The notes under the pieces are model-generated. The model was given only the letters and a program-made list of their open reading frames with translations, was not told the origin of the DNA and made no database searches. A DNA stretch of 32,000 bases from Hymenobacter metallilatus (lineage in GTDB: Bacteria > Bacteroidota > Bacteroidia > Cytophagales > Hymenobacteraceae): contig NZ_RWIS01000002.1 of the NCBI RefSeq assembly GCF_003944705.1, positions 462,243-494,242 of the forward strand. The letters run 5' to 3'. Below are positions 4,227-30,475 of this stretch, piece after piece (positions within the stretch are counted from its first letter, which is position 1; every line of letters begins with the position of its first letter). Position numbers and translations under genes: made by a program.

Positions 4227-4238
4227 TCGGTAATCACC

Positions 4239-4353
4239 AGAACGTCATGCTGAGCTTGCCGAAGCATCTCTACCGCTTCGTGCTCAAGAGTGAGTTAGCA
4301 AGAGTGAGTTAGCCAGAGGTAGAGATGCTTCGGCAAGCTCAGCATGACGTTCT
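4239..4353. repeat. complete V1 nested-palindrome element (36-nt arms, 43-nt spacer)
   Basis: Left arm 4239-4274 is agaacgtcatgctgagcttgccgaagcatctctacc. Right arm 4318-4353 is its exact reverse complement. The spacer holds a tandem 14-mer, aagagtgagttagc x2, at 4286-4313. Confidence 0.9.
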
Positions 4354-4375
4354 TTTTCCCATAACATCAGCACGC

Positions 4376-4407
4376 GAGATGCTTCGGCAAGCTGAGCATG
4401 ACGTTCT
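4376..4407. repeat. solo V1 right arm
   Basis: gagatgcttcggcaagctgagcatgacgttct has one mismatch to the consensus right arm. It lies 19 nt upstream of the argG ATG. Confidence 0.85.
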
Positions 4408-4425
4408 CATAATCTTCAGCACTCC

Positions 4426-6586: not shown

Positions 6587-6588
6587 GC

Positions 6589-6686
6589 AGAGCGTCATGC
6601 TGAGCTTGCCGAAGCATCTCTACCGCTTCGCAAGACCATTGATTACCCTCGGTAGAGATGCTTCGGCAAGCTCAGCATGACGTTCT
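6589..6686. repeat. complete V1 nested-palindrome element (36-nt arms, 26-nt spacer)
   Basis: Left arm 6589-6624 has one a>g change. Right arm 6651-6686 matches consensus. The element starts 3 nt after the argC stop. Confidence 0.9.
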
Positions 6687-6746
6687 GTTAGGATGTTCTG
6701 TAGGCTTGCTTCTAATTTCTAACCTCTCAGCTCTCACATCTATACC

Positions 6747-7886: not shown

Positions 7887-8211
7887 ACGACCTGTGGCCT
7901 AACTTGCAGCCCCAATGAGTAGCACCCTGAAGCTCCCGAGCCCCGCTCCCCTTCTGACAAGCTGCCCGCTGCCATTGGTGACTCCTGCGCAGCAACCGGC
8001 CAGTTCTTTCCACGAAAGAACAGCCTCCCCCTTTTCCTTCCAGCAGTTGTGCCCGCCCGACTTCCCGATGCCTGACATCTGGAAGTGGCAGGGTGCGGGA
8101 CCGATTGATTTAGTTTCTTTCTCTCCCGTTTGGCTTACCTCCTTGTTCGGCTGGAATAGACCCCCGGTATTCGGTTCTGTTCCAGCCGAAATTGTATCCG
8201 GGCGGTTCCGA

Positions 8212-8313
8212 CCCCCGGCCCCTCCCCTCCGGGAGAGGGGTGCGTGCCAACAAACAACGACCTCGTTACTGCTGTCTGGCTCCCCCTCTCCCGGAGGGGA
8301 GGGGGCCGGGGGG
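8212..8313. repeat. GC-rich nested inverted repeat in the carA upstream gap
   Basis: Left arm 8212-8240 is cccccggcccctcccctccgggagagggg. Right arm 8282-8313 is ccccctctcccggaggggagggggccgggggg. The arms are near-perfect complements. Each contains a 6-bp mini-hairpin, cccctc-N5-gagggg. Confidence 0.8.
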
Positions 8314-8367
8314 TGGGGTCCACGCAGAAAATCAATCATCAGAGTAAACCCTTTTTCGCATAACAGA

Positions 8368-9453
8368 GTGGAAAACGCTAAATCGGTAAAACTCGTCCTC
8401 GAAGACGGTACTGAAATCCAGGGCCAGTCGTTCGGCGCCTTCACCTCCGCCGCGGGCGAGGTGGTATTCAGCACGGCCATGACCGGCTACCCCGAAAACC
8501 TCACCGATCCGTCCTTCGCCGGGCAGATTCTGGTGCTGACTTACCCCATCGTGGGCAACTACGGCGTGCCGGGCGAGGAGCTGTACGAGTCGATTTCCAA
8601 GATTTTCGAGTCGGACAAGATTCACATTGCCGGCCTGGTAGTCAACTACTACTCCGAGGAGCACAGCCACTGGAACGCCGCCAAAAGCCTGGGCGACTGG
8701 CTGGCCGAGTACAACATCCCCGGCATCTGCGGCGTGGACACGCGCATGCTCACCAAGAAGCTGCGCGAGAAGGGCGCCATGCTCGGCAAGATTGTGGCCG
8801 AGCAGGACGTGCCCCTGCACGACCCCAACCTGGAAAACCTGGTGGCCCAGGTGAGCCCCCAGGGCGTGCAGCACTACGGCACGGGCCAGCACAAAATAGT
8901 GCTGGTAGACTGCGGCACCAAAACCAACATCATCCGCTGCTTCCTGGAGCGCGACGTGGAGCTGATCCGGGTGCCCTGGGACTACGACTTCACCCAGCTC
9001 GACTACGACGGCCTGTTCCTGAGCAACGGCCCCGGCGACCCGAAAATGTGCGTGCCCACCATCGAGCACCTGCAAAAGGCGCTGGAGCAGGACAAGCCCA
9101 TCTTCGGCATCTGCCTGGGTTCCCAGCTCATGGGCCTGGCCGCCGGCGGCGACACGTTCAAGCTCAAGTACGGGCACCGCAGCCACAACCAGCCCGTCAA
9201 GCTCACCGGCACCCAGCGCAGCTACATCACCAGCCAGAACCACGGCTTCGCGGTGGACACGGCCACGCTGCCCGCCGAGTGGGACATGCTGTTCGAAAAC
9301 CTCAACGACGGCACCTGCGAAGGCATCAAGCACAAAACCAAGCCCTTCTTCTCCACCCAGTTCCACCCCGAAGCCGCCGGCGGCCCCCAGGACACGGAGT
9401 TTCTGTTTGATGATTTCTTGAAAGCGGTGGTGGAGTATAAAGCCTCGAAGTAA
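8368..9453 (+). CDS. carA: carbamoyl-phosphate synthase small (glutaminase) subunit
   Basis: CarA similarity starts at ...ENAKSVKLVLEDGTEIQGQSFGA. I place the start at the in-frame GTG at 8368 (361 aa). The GATase triad region GICLGSQL is present. The 151 upstream in-frame codots of the track ORF (7915-8367) are Pro/Ser-rich and run through a repeat. Confidence 0.85.
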   Translation: MENAKSVKLVLEDGTEIQGQSFGAFTSAAGEVVFSTAMTGYPENLTDPSFAGQILVLTYPIVGNYGVPGEELYESISKIFESDKIHIAGLVVNYYSEEHSHWNAAKSLGDWLAEYNIPGICGVDTRMLTKKLREKGAMLGKIVAEQDVPLHDPNLENLVAQVSPQGVQHYGTGQHKIVLVDCGTKTNIIRCFLERDVELIRVPWDYDFTQLDYDGLFLSNGPGDPKMCVPTIEHLQKALEQDKPIFGICLGSQLMGLAAGGDTFKLKYGHRSHNQPVKLTGTQRSYITSQNHGFAVDTATLPAEWDMLFENLNDGTCEGIKHKTKPFFSTQFHPEAAGGPQDTEFLFDDFLKAVVEYKASK

Positions 9454-9455
9454 TC

Positions 9456-9821
9456 ATGAGTACTTGCAAGTTTCGCTTACTCATACCTACGCTAGCGCTG
9501 ATATTTTTGAATGCTGGCTGTAGGCAAGAAGCAAAATTTGATAAGGACAAGTGGTGCTCTATGGGTGATATAGGAAGCTTCCCGTATCGTGAGCAAATGG
9601 TCGATGATTTGGTTACGCATCATCAACTTAAGGGTCTCACTTACCATCAGCTTCTTGATTCACTGGGTGAGCCGTCAAACTATGGCGAGTCTGACGGCAC
9701 ACTTCGGTATCTAATCATGGAGGATTTTGAATCAGATATTGACCCGGTACATGGCAAAACGCTTGACCTGACATTGGGGCTTGATTCTGTTGTAACTGCT
9801 TACAAAGTCACCAAGTGGTAA
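9456..9821 (+). CDS. low-GC small lipoprotein-like protein (possibly a BamE/SmpA_OmlA-like fold)
   Basis: 121 aa. The ATG is 2 nt after the carA stop. Signal peptide ends ...LIFLNAGC. A 60-nt sample I hand-counted is about 40% G+C, against about 60% in carB. Confidence 0.6.
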   Translation: MSTCKFRLLIPTLALIFLNAGCRQEAKFDKDKWCSMGDIGSFPYREQMVDDLVTHHQLKGLTYHQLLDSLGEPSNYGESDGTLRYLIMEDFESDIDPVHGKTLDLTLGLDSVVTAYKVTKW

Positions 9822-9828
9822 GCACCCC

Positions 9829-9874
9829 AGAACGTCATGCTAAGTTTGCCGAATCATCTCTACCATTTCGTTGG
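9829..9874. repeat. degenerate V1 left arm (half of a split palindrome)
   Basis: agaacgtcatgctAagTttgccgaaTcatctctaccAtttcgttgg. All four differences from consensus are G/C to A/T. Its partner is at 10291-10335. Confidence 0.85.
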
Positions 9875-9915
9875 CGAATAAGATTGTAATACTCAAACGT
9901 ACTAGTATACATACC

Positions 9916-10305
9916 ATGCAGTTGAATGGAAAATCATTAAAGAAATGGCTTTTGCTTTTAGTGGCAGGTATAGCCTTTTATTTCTCTTTTGATTTCCTAG
10001 ACGACTTCTTAGATAAGCAGATGTTGGGTGACCACCCAGAAGTCATTCTTGCGGCCAAGTATGGTGCCAAGACTTCTCCGAGAATACTTAGCCACACGGG
10101 AGAAATATTTTCTGAGGAATACAAAATGAATACGCTGGATTCCAAGCAAGACTCGCTTGAACTTGATATCAAGTTAGAAGGCAAGAAGGCAACCGCCATT
10201 ATTAATACGCGTGCAGTGAAGCAAGTATCTGGTATATGGAACATCTACCGTAGCGACACCACATTCACTGAACAGGCACCACAGCTTGGCCCAACGAAGC
10301 GGTAG
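9916..10305 (+). CDS. low-GC hypothetical membrane-anchored protein
   Basis: The track ORF starts at a TTG at 9871, inside the repeat. The first ATG, at 9916 (MQLNGKSLKKWLLLLVAGIAFYFSF...), gives 129 aa with one N-terminal TM helix. The TAG stop lies within the V1 right arm (ggTAGag). No family recognised. Confidence 0.5.
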   Translation: MQLNGKSLKKWLLLLVAGIAFYFSFDFLDDFLDKQMLGDHPEVILAAKYGAKTSPRILSHTGEIFSEEYKMNTLDSKQDSLELDIKLEGKKATAIINTRAVKQVSGIWNIYRSDTTFTEQAPQLGPTKR

Positions 10306-10335
10306 AGATGCTTCGGCAAGCTCAGCATGACGTTC
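10291..10335. repeat. V1 right arm (half of a split palindrome)
   Basis: ccaacgaagcggtagagatgcttcggcaagctcagcatgacgttc. Consensus sequence, complementary to 9829-9874 except at the four degenerate positions. Confidence 0.9.
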
Positions 10336-10379
10336 AGATAAATCCTTTGCCTACGTTCTTTTTGAACATAACCCCCAGA

Positions 10380-13300
10380 ATGGAAAAACCACAGAAAGTT
10401 CTCATCCTCGGTTCCGGCGCCCTCAAAATTGGGGAGGCCGGTGAGTTCGACTACTCCGGTTCGCAGGCCCTCAAGGCGCTGAAAGAGGAAGGCATCCGCA
10501 CCATCCTCATCAACCCCAACATTGCCACCGTGCAGACGTCGGACGACATTGCCGACGACGTGTACTTCCTGCCCGTGACGCCCTACTTCGTGGAGGAAGT
10601 CATCAAGAAGGAGCAGCCCGACGGCATCCTGGTGGCCTTCGGCGGGCAGACGGCCCTGAACTGCGCCGTGGCCCTGTACCGCGCCGGCGTGTTCGAGAAG
10701 TACAACGTGCGCGTGCTCGGCACGCCCGTGCAGAGCATCATCGACACCGAGGACCGCGACATCTTCAAGGAAAAGCTCGACCAGATCGGCGTGCTCACGG
10801 CCCGCAGCGAAGCCGTAACCACGATGGAGGACGCGCTGGCGGCCGCCGAGCGGATTGGCTTCCCCATCATCGTGCGCGCCGCCTTTGCGCTGGGCGGCCT
10901 GGGCAGCGGCTTCGCCAACAACATGGACGAGCTGCGTACCCTGGCCCAGAAATCCTTCTCGACCTCCGACCAGATTCTGGTGGAAGAGTCCTTGAAGGGC
11001 TGGAAAGAGGTGGAGTACGAGGTGGTGCGCGACCAGTTCGACAACTGCATCACGGTCTGCAACATGGAGAACTTCGACCCCATCGGTATCCACACCGGGG
11101 AGAGCATCGTGGTGGCCCCGTCGCAGACGCTGAGCAACCGCGAGTACCACAAGCTGCGCAGCATCGGCATCAAGACCATCCGCCACTTGGGCATCGTGGG
11201 CGAGTGCAACATTCAGTACGCCCTCGACCCGCACTCGGAGGAATACCGCGTGATTGAGGTGAATGCCCGTTTGTCGCGCTCCTCGGCCCTGGCTTCCAAG
11301 GCTACGGGCTACCCGCTGGCCTTCGTGGCCGCCAAGCTGAGCCTGGGCTACTCCCTGGCCGAGCTGAAAAACAGCGTGACGCAGACCACCTCGGCCTTCT
11401 TCGAGCCCTCGCTCGACTACCTGGTGGTAAAGCTGCCGCGCTGGGATTTGAGCAAGTTTGCGGGTGTGCAGCGCCAGATCGGCTCGGCCATGAAGAGCGT
11501 GGGCGAGGTGATGGCCATCGGCAAAACCTTCGAGGAAGCCGTGCAGAAGGGCCTGCGCATGCTCGACACCGGCCGGCGCGGCTTCGTAGCCAACAAGCCC
11601 GAGCCCATCGACCTCGCGGACCTCGACCGGCTGCTGAGCGAACCGAACGAGGAGCGCATCTTCGCCATCAACGAGGCATTCCAGGCCGGCTACGACGTGG
11701 AGCGCGTGTACGAGCTGACGCGCATCGACCGGTGGTTTTTGCAGCGCCTCTACGGTATCTACCAGCTGGGCCTGCAGCTCGGCGAGAAGCGCCAGCAGGG
11801 TGGCCTCGATGCCCTCGACACCGACCTGCTGCGCCAGGCCAAGAAAGCGGGCTTCTCGGACCAGCAGCTGGCCGTGCAGCTGCTCGGGCCGGCCGAGGTG
11901 AAGGCCAACGAAATGCTGGTGCGCGCCCGCCGCAAGGCCCTGGGCGTGCTGCCGGTGGTCAAGCAAATCGACACGCTGGCGGCCGAATTCCCGGCCCAGA
12001 CCAACTACCTCTACCTCACCTACCACGGCACCGAAAACGACCTGGAGCCGGAAACCGACAAGTCGGTGGTGGTGCTGGGCTCGGGCGTGTACCGCATCGG
12101 CTCGTCGGTGGAGTTTGACTGGTGCGGCGTAAACGCGGCCCAGACGGTGAACGAGGAGGGCTACAAGTCCATCATCATCAACTACAACCCCGAAACCGTA
12201 AGCACCGACTACGACGTGTCGGACCGCCTGTACTTCGAGGAATTGAGCTACGAGCGGGTGATGGACATCCTGGACTTTGAGGCGCCGCAGGGCGTAATTC
12301 TGAGCACTGGCGGGCAGATTCCGAACAACATTGCCACCCGCCTCGAAGCCGCCGGCGCGCCCATCCTGGGCACCGCCGCCGCCCGCATCGACGAGGCCGA
12401 AAACCGCCACAAGTTCAGCAGCATCATGGACGAGCTGGGCATTGCCCAACCGCGCTGGAGCGAGCTGACTACGATGGAGGCCATCTACGACTTCGTGAAG
12501 CAGGTGGGCTTCCCGGTGCTGATCCGGCCGAGCTACGTGCTGTCGGGCGCGGCCATGAACGTGGTGTCGAACCCGCAGGAGCTGGAAGAGTACCTGAAGC
12601 TGGCCGTGGAGGTCAGCGCCGAGTACCCGGTGGTGGTGTCGGAGTTCATCCAGGAAGCTAAGGAAATCGAGCTGGACGCGGTGGCCGACAAGGGCGAAAT
12701 CGTGTCGTACGCCATATCGGAGCACGTCGAGTTTGCCGGCGTGCACTCCGGCGACGCCACCATGTACTACCCGCCCCAGCGCGTGTACGTGGGCACGGTA
12801 CGCAAGCTCAAGGTCATTGCCGAGAAGATTGCCCGGCGCTTCGAAATCAGCGGGCCGTTCAACATCCAGTTCCTGGAGAAAAACGGCGCCATCCGCGTCA
12901 TCGAGTGCAACCTGCGCGCCTCGCGTAGCTTCCCCTTCGTGAGCAAGGTATCGGGCCACAACCTGATCAAAAAGGCCACGAAGGTGCTGCTGGGCCAGCA
13001 CGTGGAGCGCGACGCGAGCGAGCTGGTGTACGACCTGCCCTTCGTGGGCGTGAAGGCCTCGCAGTTCTCCTTTACCCGCCTGCAGGGCGCCGACCCGGTG
13101 CTGCGCGTGGACATGACCAGCACCGGCGAAGTGGGCTGCCTGGGCGACACGGCCGAGGAAGCGCTGCTGAAGTCCTTGCTGTCGGTGGGTTACCGCATTC
13201 CGGAGAAGACGGTGCTGATGTCCAGCGGCCCGCTGCTCTCCAAGGTGGCCCTGCTCAGCGCCGCCAAGCTGCTGGTGCAGAAGGATTACACCATTTACGC

Positions 13301-13631
13301 CACCCACGGCACGCACAGCTTCCTGGCCGAAAACGGCGTGGCCAGCACCCTGGTCTACTGGCCCGACGAGCTGCAGGAGCCCAACGCCCTGACCTACCTG
13401 CGCGAGCGGAAAATCGACCTGGTCATCAACATCCCCAAGAACCTGACCAAGGGCGAGCTGGACAACGACTACAAAATCCGCCGCACCGCCGTCGACTTCA
13501 ACATCCCGCTCATCACCAACGCCCGCCTGGCCAAAGCCTTCATCAAGGCCTTCACCACGCTGAAGCTGCAGGATCTGAGCATCAAGAGCTGGAAGGAGTT
13601 CAAGGCGGAAGCCGCGCCGGTAGAGGCGTAG
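10380..13631 (+). CDS. carB: carbamoyl-phosphate synthase large subunit
   Basis: 1083 aa from the ATG at 10380 (MEKPQKVLILGSGALKIGEAGEFDYSGSQA...), with duplicated ATP-grasp halves. The 24 extra N-terminal codons in the track ORF are read-through of the V1 arm (MLRQAQHDV...). Confidence 0.95.
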   Translation: MEKPQKVLILGSGALKIGEAGEFDYSGSQALKALKEEGIRTILINPNIATVQTSDDIADDVYFLPVTPYFVEEVIKKEQPDGILVAFGGQTALNCAVALYRAGVFEKYNVRVLGTPVQSIIDTEDRDIFKEKLDQIGVLTARSEAVTTMEDALAAAERIGFPIIVRAAFALGGLGSGFANNMDELRTLAQKSFSTSDQILVEESLKGWKEVEYEVVRDQFDNCITVCNMENFDPIGIHTGESIVVAPSQTLSNREYHKLRSIGIKTIRHLGIVGECNIQYALDPHSEEYRVIEVNARLSRSSALASKATGYPLAFVAAKLSLGYSLAELKNSVTQTTSAFFEPSLDYLVVKLPRWDLSKFAGVQRQIGSAMKSVGEVMAIGKTFEEAVQKGLRMLDTGRRGFVANKPEPIDLADLDRLLSEPNEERIFAINEAFQAGYDVERVYELTRIDRWFLQRLYGIYQLGLQLGEKRQQGGLDALDTDLLRQAKKAGFSDQQLAVQLLGPAEVKANEMLVRARRKALGVLPVVKQIDTLAAEFPAQTNYLYLTYHGTENDLEPETDKSVVVLGSGVYRIGSSVEFDWCGVNAAQTVNEEGYKSIIINYNPETVSTDYDVSDRLYFEELSYERVMDILDFEAPQGVILSTGGQIPNNIATRLEAAGAPILGTAAARIDEAENRHKFSSIMDELGIAQPRWSELTTMEAIYDFVKQVGFPVLIRPSYVLSGAAMNVVSNPQELEEYLKLAVEVSAEYPVVVSEFIQEAKEIELDAVADKGEIVSYAISEHVEFAGVHSGDATMYYPPQRVYVGTVRKLKVIAEKIARRFEISGPFNIQFLEKNGAIRVIECNLRASRSFPFVSKVSGHNLIKKATKVLLGQHVERDASELVYDLPFVGVKASQFSFTRLQGADPVLRVDMTSTGEVGCLGDTAEEALLKSLLSVGYRIPEKTVLMSSGPLLSKVALLSAAKLLVQKDYTIYATHGTHSFLAENGVASTLVYWPDELQEPNALTYLRERKIDLVINIPKNLTKGELDNDYKIRRTAVDFNIPLITNARLAKAFIKAFTTLKLQDLSIKSWKEFKAEAAPVEA

Positions 13632-13646
13632 TCAGCGGAGTTCATA

Positions 13647-13691
13647 AGAACGTCATGCTGAGCTTGTCGAAGCATCTCTACCGCTTCGTTG
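13647..13691. repeat. V1 left arm carrying a private T variant (outer half of a split palindrome)
   Basis: agaacgtcatgctgagcttgTcgaagcatctctaccgcttcgttg. Its exact partner is at 14644-14684. Confidence 0.9.
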
Positions 13692-13720
13692 TTCGGCATC
13701 GGCGCTGATTGGACAAAGCA

Positions 13721-13823
13721 AGAACGTCATGCTGAGCGAAGCTGAAGCATCTCTACTGATAGTAACTCCTCTCGTGAGGACGACCCCGGTAGAGATGCTT
13801 CAACAAGCTCAGCATGACGTTCT
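13721..13823. repeat. complete variant V1 element nested inside the split palindrome
   Basis: The left arm, 13721-13756, has loop variant gagcGAAGCtga, which contains GCGAAGC at 13736-13742. The right arm, 13788-13823, is ggtagagatgcttcaacaagctcagcatgacgttct. The arms pair except at the mini-loop. Confidence 0.85.
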
Positions 13824-13854
13824 GATTTTCGGCTGTTCTGCGTAACGTAGCCGC

Positions 13855-14145
13855 ATGTACGTCTACATCCTGACTAACCCGACCCAAACTGTGCTCTACA
13901 TCGGCGTCACCAACGACTTGGCCCGCCGCCTCTATGAGCACAGCCAGGGCCGCGGTGACGCGGGCAAGTTCACCGGACGGTACCAAGCGGATTTGCTGGT
14001 GTACTTCGAGCAGTGCCCGGATGCTACGCAGGCTATTGCGCGGGAAAAGCAACTGAAAGGCTGGACGCGGCAGAAGAAGGACGCGCTGATTGCGGCGTTT
14101 AATCCGACGTGGCAGGCTATTGATTTGCAGACGTGGGCGGGGTAA
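13855..14145 (+). CDS. small stand-alone GIY-YIG (URI-domain) nuclease family protein
   Basis: 96 aa: MYVYILTNPTQTVLYIGVTNDLARRLYEH...REKQLKGW. The YILTN...LYIGVTN...R..EH...E pattern is typical of short COG2827-type GIY-YIG proteins. G+C is host-like. Confidence 0.85.
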   Translation: MYVYILTNPTQTVLYIGVTNDLARRLYEHSQGRGDAGKFTGRYQADLLVYFEQCPDATQAIAREKQLKGWTRQKKDALIAAFNPTWQAIDLQTWAG

Positions 14146-14156
14146 ACTAAATACTT

Positions 14157-14642
14157 ATGAATAAGCTATCTGAGCTAAATGACCTTTGGAAAAAGGCAAA
14201 GATTAGAACAGTTGACACTGCAACTGAACAGCAGGTTAGTGAGTTTGAAGCAACTCATAATCTGATTATTCCTCATGATTTACGAGGTTATTTCGTAGCT
14301 GTGAACGGTACCGACAGGTTGCCGGATAATGAGTTTTATACTTTCTGTACGCTTGAGCAATTTCAACCAATCACCAAAGTTTTAGATGCTTGGAAAAACG
14401 GTATACCGAGGCATAGCGACGTGCTTGAGAAAATAGGCAGCCCTCAAAATTGCTTTGTATTTGCGGATTATAGCATCTACCTCTTTGCTTACGCTATCAG
14501 GCTGTACCCTACAGAATCTGCTCAAAATGAAGTTTATGCAATCTGCGGTGGAGAATACAGAATTATAGCCAAGTCGTTTTCCGAATTCATCGACCTGTAT
14601 CTGCAGCAGGCGGATGAACTTACCTTTTGTCTCATCGCCTGA
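14157..14642 (+). CDS. SMI1/KNR4 (SUKH-1 superfamily) protein, immunity-protein-like, low GC
   Basis: 161 aa. The N-terminal segment (...QVSEFEATHNLIIPHDLRGYFVAVNG) and the ...FADY...SFSEFIDLYL segments resemble the SUKH pattern. A 60-nt sample I hand-counted is about 35% G+C. Confidence 0.65.
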   Translation: MNKLSELNDLWKKAKIRTVDTATEQQVSEFEATHNLIIPHDLRGYFVAVNGTDRLPDNEFYTFCTLEQFQPITKVLDAWKNGIPRHSDVLEKIGSPQNCFVFADYSIYLFAYAIRLYPTESAQNEVYAICGGEYRIIAKSFSEFIDLYLQQADELTFCLIA

Positions 14643-14643
14643 G

Positions 14644-14684
14644 CAACGAAGCGGTAGAGATGCTTCGACAAGCTCAGCATGACG
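14644..14684. repeat. V1 right arm carrying the matching private A variant (outer half of a split palindrome)
   Basis: caacgaagcggtagagatgcttcgAcaagctcagcatgacg is the exact reverse complement of 13651-13691. The terminal ttct reappears at 14710-14713 after a 25-nt insertion. Confidence 0.9.
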
Positions 14685-14733
14685 GCCTGACGGCCTTTTC
14701 CGTCTGCCGTTCTGAAATACCGTAGAACACCCC

Positions 14734-18327: not shown

Positions 18328-18454
18328 GAATGTGGCGTAAGCTTTAGCTTGCGCCGTACACCGGCCGTAAAAGGGGCAGCATCACCGCGCTCTGCCGATT
18401 TTTACGCCCGGTTCTCGTTTATGCACGGCGCAAGCTAAAGCTTACGCCACATTC
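18328..18454. repeat. perfect 30-bp inverted repeat filling the EamA/rarA divergent intergenic region
   Basis: gaatgtggcgtaagctttagcttgcgccgt (18328-18357) and acggcgcaagctaaagcttacgccacattc (18425-18454). Each arm lies 7 nt from a start codon and contains an internal palindrome, gcgtaagct-tt-agcttgcgc. Confidence 0.9.
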
Positions 18455-19800: not shown

Positions 19801-20042
19801 AGGGTATGAGGGTGTGGGGGTGTGGGGGTGTGGGGGTAGGAGTTATTAGCCCGTCATTCCGAGCTTGCCGAGGAATCTCGCGTGCTGACGTTGCACTGGT
19901 GACTGTTACGCAGAATGCAGCGGAGCGGAGTGATGCATCTCGCGTGCAGTGCTGATCCACCTCATTGCAACATTAGCCCGTCATTCCTCGGCAAGCTCGG
20001 AATGACGGGCTAATAACTCCTACCCCCGCACCCTCATACCCT
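19801..20042. repeat. composite V2 nested-palindrome element with octamer expansion
   Basis: The left arm, 19801-19876, includes aggagttattagcccgtcattccgagcttgccgaggaat. The right arm, 19983-20042, is its reverse complement and extends to acccccgcaccctcataccct. The left arm has extra gtgtgggg units at 19810-19836. Confidence 0.9.
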
Positions 20043-22910: not shown

Positions 22911-22932
22911 GTACAGTAACCTGTCAGAGTGC

Positions 22933-22968
22933 AAAAAGGCCCGCTACCAGTTGGTAGCGGGCCTTTTT
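22933..22968. terminator. bidirectional rho-independent terminator between convergent genes
   Basis: aaaaa-ggcccgctacc-agtt-ggtagcgggcc-ttttt. Confidence 0.85.
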
Positions 22969-22982
22969 ACGGAAGTTGTGGC

Positions 22983-23447
22983 CTATTTGCGTGCCGGCCC
23001 GAAACTGTACATTTCCGGCTGGTTGTGTTTGGCGGGGTGCCCGTACACGAGCTTGGCGGTGGTTACACTCTCTACGGTATATTCCTGGGCGGTGCCTTTA
23101 TGGTCGGTGAGGTGCAGGGTGCGGTTGTCGGTGCCCATCAGCATCCAGGTGCCGCGGTAGGTAGTACCATCGGCCAGCAGGGTCTGCACATAAGTGCCGT
23201 CGGGTTTAAACTGCATACTGTACCGGTCCTTGATGGCCTCGGCGCTGGTGAGTTGCCCGCCGCTGCTTACCTCGTTCAGCCACCAGACGGTAACGCTGGT
23301 AAAAGCAGCCGTGGTAACTGGCTCCCGGGGAGGCGGGGTGCAGCCGCAGGTAGATTTTTCGCAGCTGGTTGTGCCTGCCGCACCCAGGGCCAGCAAGGCG
23401 CTGCAAGCCAGCAGGCGGGCAAAGCGAAGAGTAGCAGGTATAGGCAT
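22983..23447 (-). CDS. lipocalin-like-domain lipoprotein, paralog 1
   Basis: 154 aa with a signal peptide, SCEKSTCGC, then W.LNEV...IKDRYSMQFKPDGTYVQTLLADGTTYRGTW. Closely similar to the next ORF. Confidence 0.7.
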   Translation of the reverse strand: MPIPATLRFARLLACSALLALGAAGTTSCEKSTCGCTPPPREPVTTAAFTSVTVWWLNEVSSGGQLTSAEAIKDRYSMQFKPDGTYVQTLLADGTTYRGTWMLMGTDNRTLHLTDHKGTAQEYTVESVTTAKLVYGHPAKHNQPEMYSFGPARK

Positions 23448-23456
23448 GGGAGGTTG

Positions 23457-23894
23457 CTATAATACGCTGGTGAAGCGCCGCTCCTCCGTCTCGCCACTTT
23501 TGTTCACCCAGGCATAGCGGAGCTCCTGGTTCGAAACGCGCCCTACGGTGTAGTCCTGGGCGGCGCCTTTGTGGTCAACCAGGTTCAGCAGCATGTTGCT
23601 TTCCTCCAGCTTCCAGGTGCCATTGTAGGTGGTGCCGTCGGCCAGCAGGGTTTGCACATAGGTGCCATCGGCCCTGAGCTGGATGGTATACCGGTCTTTA
23701 ATGGTGCTGCCGCTGCCGGCCAGCTGGTTATTGAGGTATACCTCATCAAGCCGCCACTTCTGGGCCATTTGAGCCATTACTACCGATGGTACCGGTACCG
23801 GGTCGCAGCCGCAGGATGTATTGTCGCAGCTGCCCACCATGAAGAAGGTGGAGAAAAATACGGCAAAAAGAATAAGCGGGCGTTTTATACGCAT
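23457..23894 (-). CDS. lipocalin-like-domain lipoprotein, paralog 2
   Basis: 145 aa with a signal peptide, GSCDNTSCGC, then W.LDEV...IKDRYTIQLRADGTYVQTLLADGTTYNGTW. Confidence 0.7.
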   Translation of the reverse strand: MRIKRPLILFAVFFSTFFMVGSCDNTSCGCDPVPVPSVVMAQMAQKWRLDEVYLNNQLAGSGSTIKDRYTIQLRADGTYVQTLLADGTTYNGTWKLEESNMLLNLVDHKGAAQDYTVGRVSNQELRYAWVNKSGETEERRFTSVL

Positions 23895-23960
23895 GATTGG
23901 GTGGTAAGGAAGATAAGAAAGAAGTGACGGGTAAATGTATGCCGGAAAGCCGCGCAGCTT

Positions 23961-30394: not shown

Positions 30395-30475
30395 CTGTCA
30401 TTCCGAGCGAAGCGAGGAATCTGGGTTATACATCAGGAGTTAGACCCAGATTCCTCGCTTCGCTCGGAATGACAG
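30395..30475. repeat. V3 nested-palindrome element (perfect 32-bp arms, 17-nt loop) between convergent genes
   Basis: ctgtcattccgagcgaagcgaggaatctgggt (30395-30426) and acccagattcctcgcttcgctcggaatgacag (30444-30475). GCGAAGC lies at 30407-30413. Confidence 0.9.

Follow-up and report, generated by a model that had tools for sequence, protein, structure and literature searches.

A probable hypervariable slot for palindrome-associated gene cassettes between carA and carB of Hymenobacter metallilatus

The arginine-biosynthesis cluster of Hymenobacter metallilatus contains, between carA and carB, a spacer of low G+C content with two small open reading frames (ORFs), called ORF1 and ORF2a, the second of which lies between the two arms of a split palindrome. 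The spacer has been analysed as part of a stretch of 32,000 nucleotides (contig NZ_RWIS01000002.1, positions 462,243-494,242). This whole stretch is called the window, and its own coordinates, 1-32,000, are used throughout. We consider it rather probable that the spacer is a hypervariable slot for palindrome-associated cassettes, which are exchanged by homologous recombination, and that two independent modules occupy it here. Hymenobacter comparison loci are designated by L-numbers (L001 and onwards), where L003 is strain BRD128, L004 is strain HSC-4F20, L006 is strain CRA2 and L009 is H. cavernae.

Results

Layout and composition of the carA-carB spacer

The cluster comprises argB and an M20 peptidase gene on the minus strand, followed on the plus strand by a GNAT gene, argG, argC, argD, carA, carB and argF. 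The stop codon of carA occupies 9451-9453 and the ATG of carB is at 10380, with 926 nt between them. Both ORFs in this interval encode products that match H. metallilatus proteins with full identity. From the reading frame and from homologue lengths of 359-365 amino acids, carA is likely to start with the in-frame GTG at 8368. The features in and next to the spacer are the following.

8368-9453, plus strand: carA, carbamoyl-phosphate synthase small subunit (Pfam CPSase_sm_chain and GATase on 8380-9453)
9456-9821, plus strand: ORF1, lipoprotein or periplasmic protein of 121 amino acids (BtiO profile match)
9830-9874, outer edge at about 9829, plus strand: left arm of the split palindrome (left homology boundary among six ORF2a units)
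9875-9915, plus strand: ORF2a leader (alignable among ORF2a units of all three genomic contexts)
9916-10305, plus strand: ORF2a, 129 amino acids, N-terminal membrane anchor, orphan family (homologue alignment)
10291-10335, plus strand: right arm of the split palindrome (matches the consensus; the ORF2a unit ends here on the right)
10380-13631, plus strand: carB, carbamoyl-phosphate synthase large subunit (Pfam)

In 200-nt windows the G+C content is 0.37-0.46 across 9400-10400, as against 0.59-0.68 on both sides; for the full spacer it is 0.43 and for the flanking genes 62%. The G+C content at third codon positions (GC3) is 0.44 for ORF1 and 0.48 for ORF2a, compared with 0.82-0.91 for argG, argC, argD, carA, carB and argF. 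An initial annotation, made from the letters of the sequence, had put the G+C content of the spacer at about 40% by hand count, and the drop is reproduced by these calculations, as are the spacer length and the position of the ORF1 start codon (ATG at 9456), 2 nt past the carA stop. Its description of the spacer as one block with two ORFs did not survive, since ORF1 and ORF2a differ in distribution and history, and ORF1 is not enclosed by the arms.

ORF2a is part of a discrete unit with arm-defined ends

The two arms are 45 nt each and 89% complementary, and the consensus of such arms is AGAACGTCATGCTGAGCTTGCCGAAGCATCTCTACCGCTTCGTTG. The right arm has the consensus sequence, while the left arm differs from it at five positions (9842, 9845, 9854, 9865 and 9866), each a change from G/C to A/T. 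That these arms bracket ORF2a, that the right one is consensus and that the left one has diverged toward A/T had all been seen in the initial annotation, which counted four differences instead of five and placed the left arm at 9829-9874, where the 45-nt match gives 9830-9874.

The left arm, the leader, ORF2a and the right arm together make up a unit of about 505 bp. Among six ORF2a units, similarity extends from the outer end of the left arm, via a leader of about 45 nt and the ORF, to the outer end of the right arm. Close homologues of ORF2a, 73-92% identical, are found in three genomic contexts with unrelated flanks: between carA and carB in the window and, from metagenomes, in L086 and L088/L089; in strain BRD128 and L087, with the ATPase gene of an ABC transporter on one side and its permease gene on the other; and between a VWA gene and a transketolase C-terminal gene in strain HSC-4F20. 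In these alignments the unit is shown to be a discrete module, with ends set by the arms and with a place in three unrelated contexts. The initial annotation had asked whether homologues elsewhere are flanked by the same repeat, and in the unrelated contexts they are.

ORF2a starts at the ATG at 9916, as do all its homologues, and not at the TTG at 9871 within the arm, and its product has one transmembrane helix, at the N-terminus. The codon at 10273-10275 is CAG in the window and TAG or TAA in every homologue. The reading frame does end, as previously noted, at the TAG in the right arm, but only because the ancestral stop at 10273-10275 has mutated, which has led to a read-through of 10 codons. 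The family is small, with 22 representatives at E <= 1e-3 among 1.84 billion proteins, and evolves with dN/dS (the ratio of nonsynonymous to synonymous substitution rates) of 0.07-0.19. Weak matches of its profile to large proteins, with the weakest of the 22 among them, were rejected as artefacts of FG-GAP repeats. There was no profile match in the PDB and, for ORF2a as for ORF1, nothing meaningful in Pfam, NCBIfam or PADLOC. H. qilianensis, H. jejuensis, H. cavernae, strain CRA2 and L088 have a divergent paralogue, ORF2b, about 33% identical, as the gene immediately upstream of carB.

Intact and gene-filled palindromes are alternative states of the same sites

The 33-mer core of the arms occurs in 8 copies in the window, where 0 are expected from 100 shuffles. 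Two palindromes are split, with arms at 9830/10291 and at 13651/14644, and between the second pair lie genes for a GIY-YIG nuclease and a SUKH-1 protein. The further palindromes of the operon, and the cargo of the second split one, are as follows.

4238-4353, no strand assigned: intact palindrome between the GNAT gene and argG, with an extra right-arm copy at 4369-4409
6588-6687, no strand assigned: intact palindrome in the argC-argD spacer, a site that carries a gene between such arms in other genomes and is here in its "empty" state
13644-14689, plus strand: second cargo-bearing palindrome, between carB and argF (Pfam and arm mapping)
13644-13826: arm cluster after carB, counted as an intact palindrome
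13855-14145, plus strand: GIY-YIG nuclease gene, 96 amino acids (PF01541, E 2e-17)
14157-14642, plus strand: SUKH-1/SMI1_KNR4 immunity-type gene, followed by a right arm at 14641-14689

To see how arms are arranged in general, consider a sample of 558 kb, in which at least 80 loci taken from metagenome contigs by exact core matches are pooled with the Hymenobacter loci. It holds at least 187 arms, and 72 of the 79 adjacent left-right pairs are intact doublets with cores at most 60 nt apart; a few per cent enclose DNA of low G+C content. The intact palindrome at 6588-6687 folds with a 39-bp stem (-48 kcal/mol, z -13). The folds of single arms are no more stable than those of shuffled sequence (z -0.2 and +0.7), so that there is no thermodynamic support for the proposal that each arm is a stable hairpin of the repetitive extragenic palindromic (REP) type. 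Variant palindromes at 19818-20041 and 30397-30473 have ATGCT...AGCAT swapped for ATTCC...GGAAT with complementarity kept, and this two-sided change (at 19853 and 30397) hints at a conserved small stem, even though single arms are thermodynamically undistinctive. The entire window has no Rfam match at gathering thresholds.

In the argC-argD spacer the palindrome is intact in the window and in L086, and its centre of 24-26 nt is nearly the same in the two. In H. cavernae the same arms enclose an Imm50-like ORF, the stop of which is again the TAG of the arm; L123 has an ORF of 118 amino acids beside a right arm, and L088 has a DUF6188 gene. Between carB and argF, the palindrome is intact in L123 and L167 and contains the GIY-YIG and SUKH genes in the window; this spacer has an Imm50 gene in H. 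qilianensis and measures 94 bp in H. jejuensis. When these orthologous spacers are compared, the intact palindrome and the palindrome split by genes are shown to be alternative states of the same sites.

Palindromes may also be lost or interrupted. The left boundary of the ORF2a unit in L088 (2990-3045) is a collapsed mini-palindrome, GTTATGCTGAGCTT-CGAC-AAGCTCAGCATAAC, with only the outer 14 nt of each arm, and therefore palindrome centres appear to be deletable as well as fillable. In L007 (382-1650) and L119 (580-1675), ORFs of insertion sequences take the place where the left arm is expected, and the cargo gene and the right arm persist. By eye, the product in L119 is IS1-like and that in L007 is a transposase-like ORF of 251 amino acids. 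By analogy with insertion sequences that target REPs, some may target these palindromes.

Cargo turnover in the carA-carB slot

At least 10 cargo families are distributed over 17 Hymenobacter spacers between carA and carB, with the following contents.

ORF1 and ORF2a: the window
ORF2a alone: L086
ORF2a and ORF2b: L088
ORF1 and ORF2b: L001, L002
Imm50-like ORF of 269 amino acids and ORF2b: L006
Imm50-like ORF of 269 amino acids alone: L123
ORF of 93 amino acids between arms, and ORF2b: L009
Seven distinct sets of a small ORF and a GIY-YIG gene between arms: L007, L111, L160, L210, L212, L213, L214
Short spacer (150-195 bp), free of cargo genes: L008, L010

In Bacteroidales and other outgroups the gap between carA and carB is 3-100 bp. 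The proposal that the spacer holds accessory and not ancestral DNA is supported by these short gaps, by the two Hymenobacter spacers that are free of cargo, and by the different contents among close relatives. Most of the comparison loci were found via cargo, nuclease or arms; L006-L010, found via carA, are the sole unbiased subset, and three of these five have cargo.

Where the exchange begins and ends can be read from L212, L213 and L214, the flanks of which are 91-92% identical. Their slots (L212 1952-2501, L213 2177-2501 and L214 1983-2499) hold three unrelated genes, encoding proteins of 191, 91 and 163 amino acids, the last an Imm50 protein. Homology continues through carA as far as the left arm's inner end, is lost altogether over the cargo, and resumes at the start codon of the GIY-YIG gene. 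In this comparison, cargo turnover is thus shown between genomes that are about 92% identical. The initial annotation had offered two scenarios, recombination between repeats and insertion at a palindrome centre, and each finds some support: empty and filled palindromes are found at two arg spacers, and the breakpoints coincide with conserved anchors.

Discrete ends, 45-nt terminal inverted repeats, abundant short derivatives and a passenger gene that is not a transposase are also what classical transposition would give. The arms would then be the terminal inverted repeats of an insertion sequence, the palindromes miniature inverted-repeat transposable elements, and the ORF2a unit a mobile insertion cassette (MIC) moved in trans, like those of qnrS2 and qnrD (PMC2600179, PMC3913671), where two such repeats surround one non-transposase gene in differing contexts. 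We regard this as improbable. No direct repeats, as from target-site duplication, flank any of about 30 arms inspected, those of every unit included, and some 560 kb of Hymenobacter sequence contained no arm-flanked transposase, cognate or other. Nor did the comparison loci reveal a parent insertion sequence that shares these terminal repeats. The insertion sequences of L007 and L119 replace the place of the left arm instead of being bounded by arms, and the cargo swap in L212, L213 and L214 spans from arm to GIY-YIG start, not from arm to arm. Furthermore, the "empty" form is here a resident palindrome at the site, and not, as for MICs, a site free of repeats.

The genes in the slots share a number of properties, among them a high A+T content. 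Their dN/dS values of 0.05-0.3 indicate purifying selection. Their GC3 is 0.3-0.55 in every host, except for ORF2b (0.5-0.8), and it stays low also where the synonymous divergence (dS) between homologues is about 1 or saturated. From this follows that low G+C content is an equilibrium property of the gene pool and not a sign of recent arrival. Cargo ORFs are co-oriented with the flanking genes in all of at least 12 independent combinations of site and cargo. A scan of the block for sigma-70 promoters and intrinsic terminators gave nothing above chance, with the reservation that it does not model Bacteroidota promoters, and it can reasonably be inferred that cargo is expressed by read-through from the arg operon.

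ORF1 and ORF2a have different histories

As judged by nucleotide identity of housekeeping genes, the closest relatives of the window are L086 (94-96%) and CRA2 (84-96%). Compared with the window, the identity of CRA2 rises from 84% in argD via 93% in carA to 96.5% in carB, which suggests large interspecies recombination tracts across the arg operon. In relation to L086, dS is 0.21 for ORF2a, 0.22 for carA and 0.15 for carB. Since the value for ORF2a matches those of its neighbours, the unit was in all likelihood at the site already in the common ancestor with L086 and is not a recent arrival. Relative to the consensus, the orthologous left arm shows one mismatch in L086, as against five in the window. 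From this difference, and from the fact that all five changes in the window go from G/C to A/T, follows that decay on site, within the lineage of H. metallilatus, is the most likely history of the left arm; of the two possibilities named by the initial annotation, arrival with the AT-rich DNA or decay within it, it is the second that is favoured.

ORF1 is absent in the closer relatives L086 and CRA2 and present in the more distant L001 and L002. The last approximately 45 nt of carA (about 9409-9453) are mosaic: the window has the DDFLKAVVEYKA haplotype of L001, L002, L007 and L008, unlike L086 and CRA2, where the 3' tail of carA is of the DQFLDEVEKYKA haplotype. The mosaic tail and the distribution of ORF1 therefore point to a recombination tract that brought ORF1 together with the tail of carA. 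The order of events would be that the ORF2a unit was in place before the split from L086, that ORF1 was then added with a new carA 3' tail, and that the left arm thereafter decayed by AT-biased mutation. A foreign donor, as envisaged in the initial annotation, was found for neither ORF1 nor ORF2a in protein searches, and both families are essentially confined to Hymenobacter. Viral contigs contained no arms and no relatives of ORF1, and one marginal, partial match to ORF2a only; therefore there is no evidence for a phage as vector.

One could also imagine that ORF1 and ORF2a are ancestral genes of the operon which have been differentially lost, and that the arms are unrelated intergenic repeats that happen to be nearby. 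In H. qilianensis and H. jejuensis, ORF1 and ORF2b do stand at these same places, and the dS of ORF2a relative to L086 equals that of the flanking genes. We consider this reading highly improbable. Two further operons, unrelated to this one, contain ORF2a units that have these arms and this leader, which in large part refutes it already. In addition, the closest relatives are without ORF1, GC3 is half that of the operon in spite of saturated dS, at least 10 gene families occupy the slot, and the outgroups are without the spacer.

Immunity-type genes among the cargo

Imm50 and SUKH-1/SMI1_KNR4 are recognised families of immunity proteins. Apart from the SUKH-1 gene of the window, Imm50 cargo is found in L001, L006, L009, L007, L123 and L214, and DUF6188 cargo in L088. 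ORF1 appears to be of a similar kind. A profile of its family, which has 14 members, all from Hymenobacter or metagenomes, matches PDB entry 9uu1_A (BtiO, from a crystal structure) with an E value of 1.7e-11, residues 25-121, which make up the full mature domain, being aligned with 7-109 of 112. BtiO is a periplasmic immunity protein with a signal peptide, and it neutralises BteO, a type VI secretion system (T6SS) effector of Bacteroides fragilis (PMC12541434). The N-terminal hydrophobic segment of ORF1, as read from the sequence, appears likewise to be a signal peptide, ending in a lipobox-like LNAGC. The dN/dS of the family is 0.11-0.18, and ORF1 has the same position in H. qilianensis and H. 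jejuensis.

No effector gene adjoins ORF1, the neighbours of which are carA and ORF2a, and there are no T6SS genes in the window; ORF1 would therefore be an "orphan" immunity-type gene. ORF2a products have 119-129 amino acids, whereas BteO counts nine helices in its periplasmic domain alone (PMC12541434). That ORF1 and ORF2a form an effector-immunity pair was rejected, as each is found without the other.

A GIY-YIG nuclease gene adjoins the arms

The GIY-YIG gene between carB and argF has a GC3 of 0.77, similar to that of the host. Identity among its products in many Hymenobacter species is 77-96%, and two close copies are present in H. psychrotolerans. In Pfam terms the 96-amino-acid protein consists of the catalytic domain and nothing more, a DNA-binding module being absent. 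The nine GIY-YIG genes examined all adjoin arms, and in eight of them a right arm follows at most about 20 nt past the stop codon. All are located in the arg operon, seven of them between carA and carB and two between carB and argF; the five close homologues that were looked up are found there without exception. Each neighbours a different small ORF (the window, L007, L111, L160 and L210-L214). By eye, the 191-amino-acid product in the slot of L212 has itself a GIY-YIG-like motif, YVGRS...LRERI.QH.

Consider the case that movement is driven by this nuclease through homing. The GIY-YIG protein would cut the intact palindrome, for example at an extruded cruciform or hairpin centre, and repair from a copy with cargo would then fill it. 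As the autonomous element one would then have the nuclease gene, with the immunity-type genes as hitch-hikers, in a GIY-YIG counterpart of the REP doublets forming hairpins (REPINs) and their REP-associated tyrosine transposases (RAYTs). This is possible, and we find it rather doubtful. The regular association with arms, the high conservation and host-like GC3 of the gene, the variable slot that abuts its start codon exactly, and the placement of cargo in the palindrome centre are what one would expect; also, intact doublets far outnumber nuclease genes in the metagenome sample (72 versus 2), a ratio as for REPINs and RAYTs. Yet the protein lacks a DNA-binding module, and the ORF2a units at the ABC transporter and transketolase sites have no nuclease gene nearby. 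The location of all close homologues in the arg operon fits equally well with a vertically inherited resident gene that acts as an anchor. In its strongest form, as an undescribed gene-capture system in which the GIY-YIG enzyme of REPIN-like repeats opens the centres of spacer palindromes, into which promoterless cassettes of one gene each, mostly orphan interbacterial-immunity genes, are copied, the proposal is tentative, and on balance unlikely.

Other features of the window

The spacer between argD and carA has a tract of about 320 nt (7887-8207) that is apparently non-coding. It is kept in L086 (96% identity), L210 (81%) and CRA2 (76%), is missing from other Hymenobacter arg operons and has no Rfam match. 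A spurious long ORF at 7915-9453, fused to carA, arises from it. This DNA may act as a leader or encode a regulatory RNA, or it may be a further inserted element. Just upstream of carA, at 8212-8311, there is a second palindrome family, which is G+C-rich, CCCCCGGCCCCTCCCCTCCGGGAGAGGGG and its complement, with 29-nt arms that are 93% complementary. An unrelated inverted repeat of 33 nt (97% complementary, 61 nt apart) lies at 18328-18454, between genes for an EamA transporter and MgsA/RarA. At 23065-23715 there is a tandem duplication with a period of about 470 bp and 74-77% identity across two neighbouring ORFs annotated with no function (22929-23462 and about 23457-23927), which adjoin a pair of genes for DUF4249 and a TonB-dependent receptor.

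Discussion

The initial annotation was right in spirit, in that the spacer holds accessory DNA that is moved with the help of a repeat, and wrong in picturing one recent insertion. In the reading that we favour, cassettes move by homologous recombination, that is, by gene conversion or allelic replacement after uptake of DNA or between genomic copies. Crossovers would be anchored in the arms, in the GIY-YIG gene and at the ends of carA and carB, all of them conserved sequences. A segment with left arm, cargo and right arm could replace the short centre of any resident palindrome, and such conversion would explain the ORF2a units at non-homologous sites. The cassettes presumably protect against interbacterial toxins. 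Homologous recombination is favoured since the anchor breakpoints in L212-L214 and the mosaic carA tail fit with cassette replacement of this kind, and it is, from sequence comparison, the most likely mechanism.

A number of points weigh against this reading. Arms of 45 nt are near the lower limit for efficient RecA-dependent exchange. At the ABC transporter, transketolase and carA-carB sites no intact palindrome, i.e., no empty state, was recovered. That GIY-YIG genes always stand beside arms suggests an active, nuclease-driven process and not passive recombination. The frequencies of cargo are biased, since most loci were retrieved via cargo, nuclease or arms. As to the genes themselves, ORF2a is without functional assignment, an immunity function of ORF1 is suggested by homology only, AlphaFold2 models are poor for both families (predicted local distance difference test scores of 44 and 49), and the promoter scan that bears on expression by read-through has the limit given above.

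The repeats resemble REPINs (Bertels & Rainey 2011, PMC3116915) and bacterial interspersed mosaic elements in being short intergenic palindromic repeats, mostly arranged as head-to-head doublets of about 100 bp with a long hairpin. Of the CGTC and GTAG-type tags that Di Nocera et al. 2013 (PMC3733652) describe, the arm carries CGTC outermost and, deeper inside, CTAC, which reads GTAG on the other strand, and a low-copy nuclease gene is flanked by repeats here, as RAYT genes are. The differences are that this enzyme is a GIY-YIG nuclease and not a HUH tyrosine transposase, and that a minority of the doublets hold protein-coding cargo in their centre. Among the window ORFs of at least 100 amino acids that were scanned, none had a transposase, integrase or HUH/RAYT (Y1_Tnp) domain, and hence no cognate RAYT was found there. 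Membership among REPINs is therefore not established, because the single-arm hairpin is unsupported and the associated enzyme is not a RAYT. CGTC repeats that lack a dedicated transposase, some of them in Bacteroidetes, have been described by Di Nocera et al. 2013 (PMC3733652), who also noted DNA inserted between dimer partners.

The minimal mobile elements of Neisseria, too, have strain-specific cassettes at a fixed site between conserved genes, and their exchange has been attributed to homologous recombination in the conserved flanks (PMC3082526). The mosaic carA tail and the breakpoints defined by anchors fit this pattern. In contrast to the Neisseria case, the Hymenobacter site lies inside a biosynthetic operon, and a dispersed palindromic repeat also bounds the cassettes, so that the same cassette occurs at non-homologous sites.

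Integron cassettes are similar in being small, compositionally deviant, mostly single-gene, co-oriented, apparently promoterless and associated with palindromes, and in having defence-related or unassigned functions, and arrays that read gene and right arm, repeated, are seen in L214 and L211. Here, however, no integrase was found in the window ORFs scanned, there is no attI or Pc platform, the cargo lies between palindrome halves rather than between complete attC sites, and the slots are scattered over operon spacers.

In 2019, Ross et al. reportedly described orphan immunity genes of Bacteroidales, and the acquired islands that serve them in interbacterial defence. The BtiO-like, Imm50 and SUKH-1 genes resemble these systems (see also PMC12247911) in having no adjacent effectors, in being mobile and in turning over fast. 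In gut Bacteroidales the genes form arrays on integrative or recombinase-associated elements, whereas here single genes enter a housekeeping operon via a palindromic repeat, in a genus of soil and air. In the literature searched, neither immunity-type cassettes bounded by palindromes nor a GIY-YIG nuclease associated with repeats was described from Bacteroidota, and the cassette system, which is genus-wide, is apparently undescribed.

If the favoured reading is true, dispersed palindromic repeats would be docking sites for accessory genes and not passive intergenic elements, and single genes, apparently of the toxin-immunity type, would move among operon spacers and species and take their expression from housekeeping promoters. 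The biology of REPs and REPINs, the turnover of orphan immunity genes and homing-type nucleases, which are usually separate fields, would then become linked. Should gene capture by the GIY-YIG enzyme be true, it would be an integrase-free functional analogue of the integron, and a candidate explanation for REP-type repeats that have no associated transposase; the 96-amino-acid protein and the 100-bp palindrome offer themselves as testable substrates. The persistent low G+C content of such cassettes, finally, represents a steady state and not the mark of a recent acquisition.

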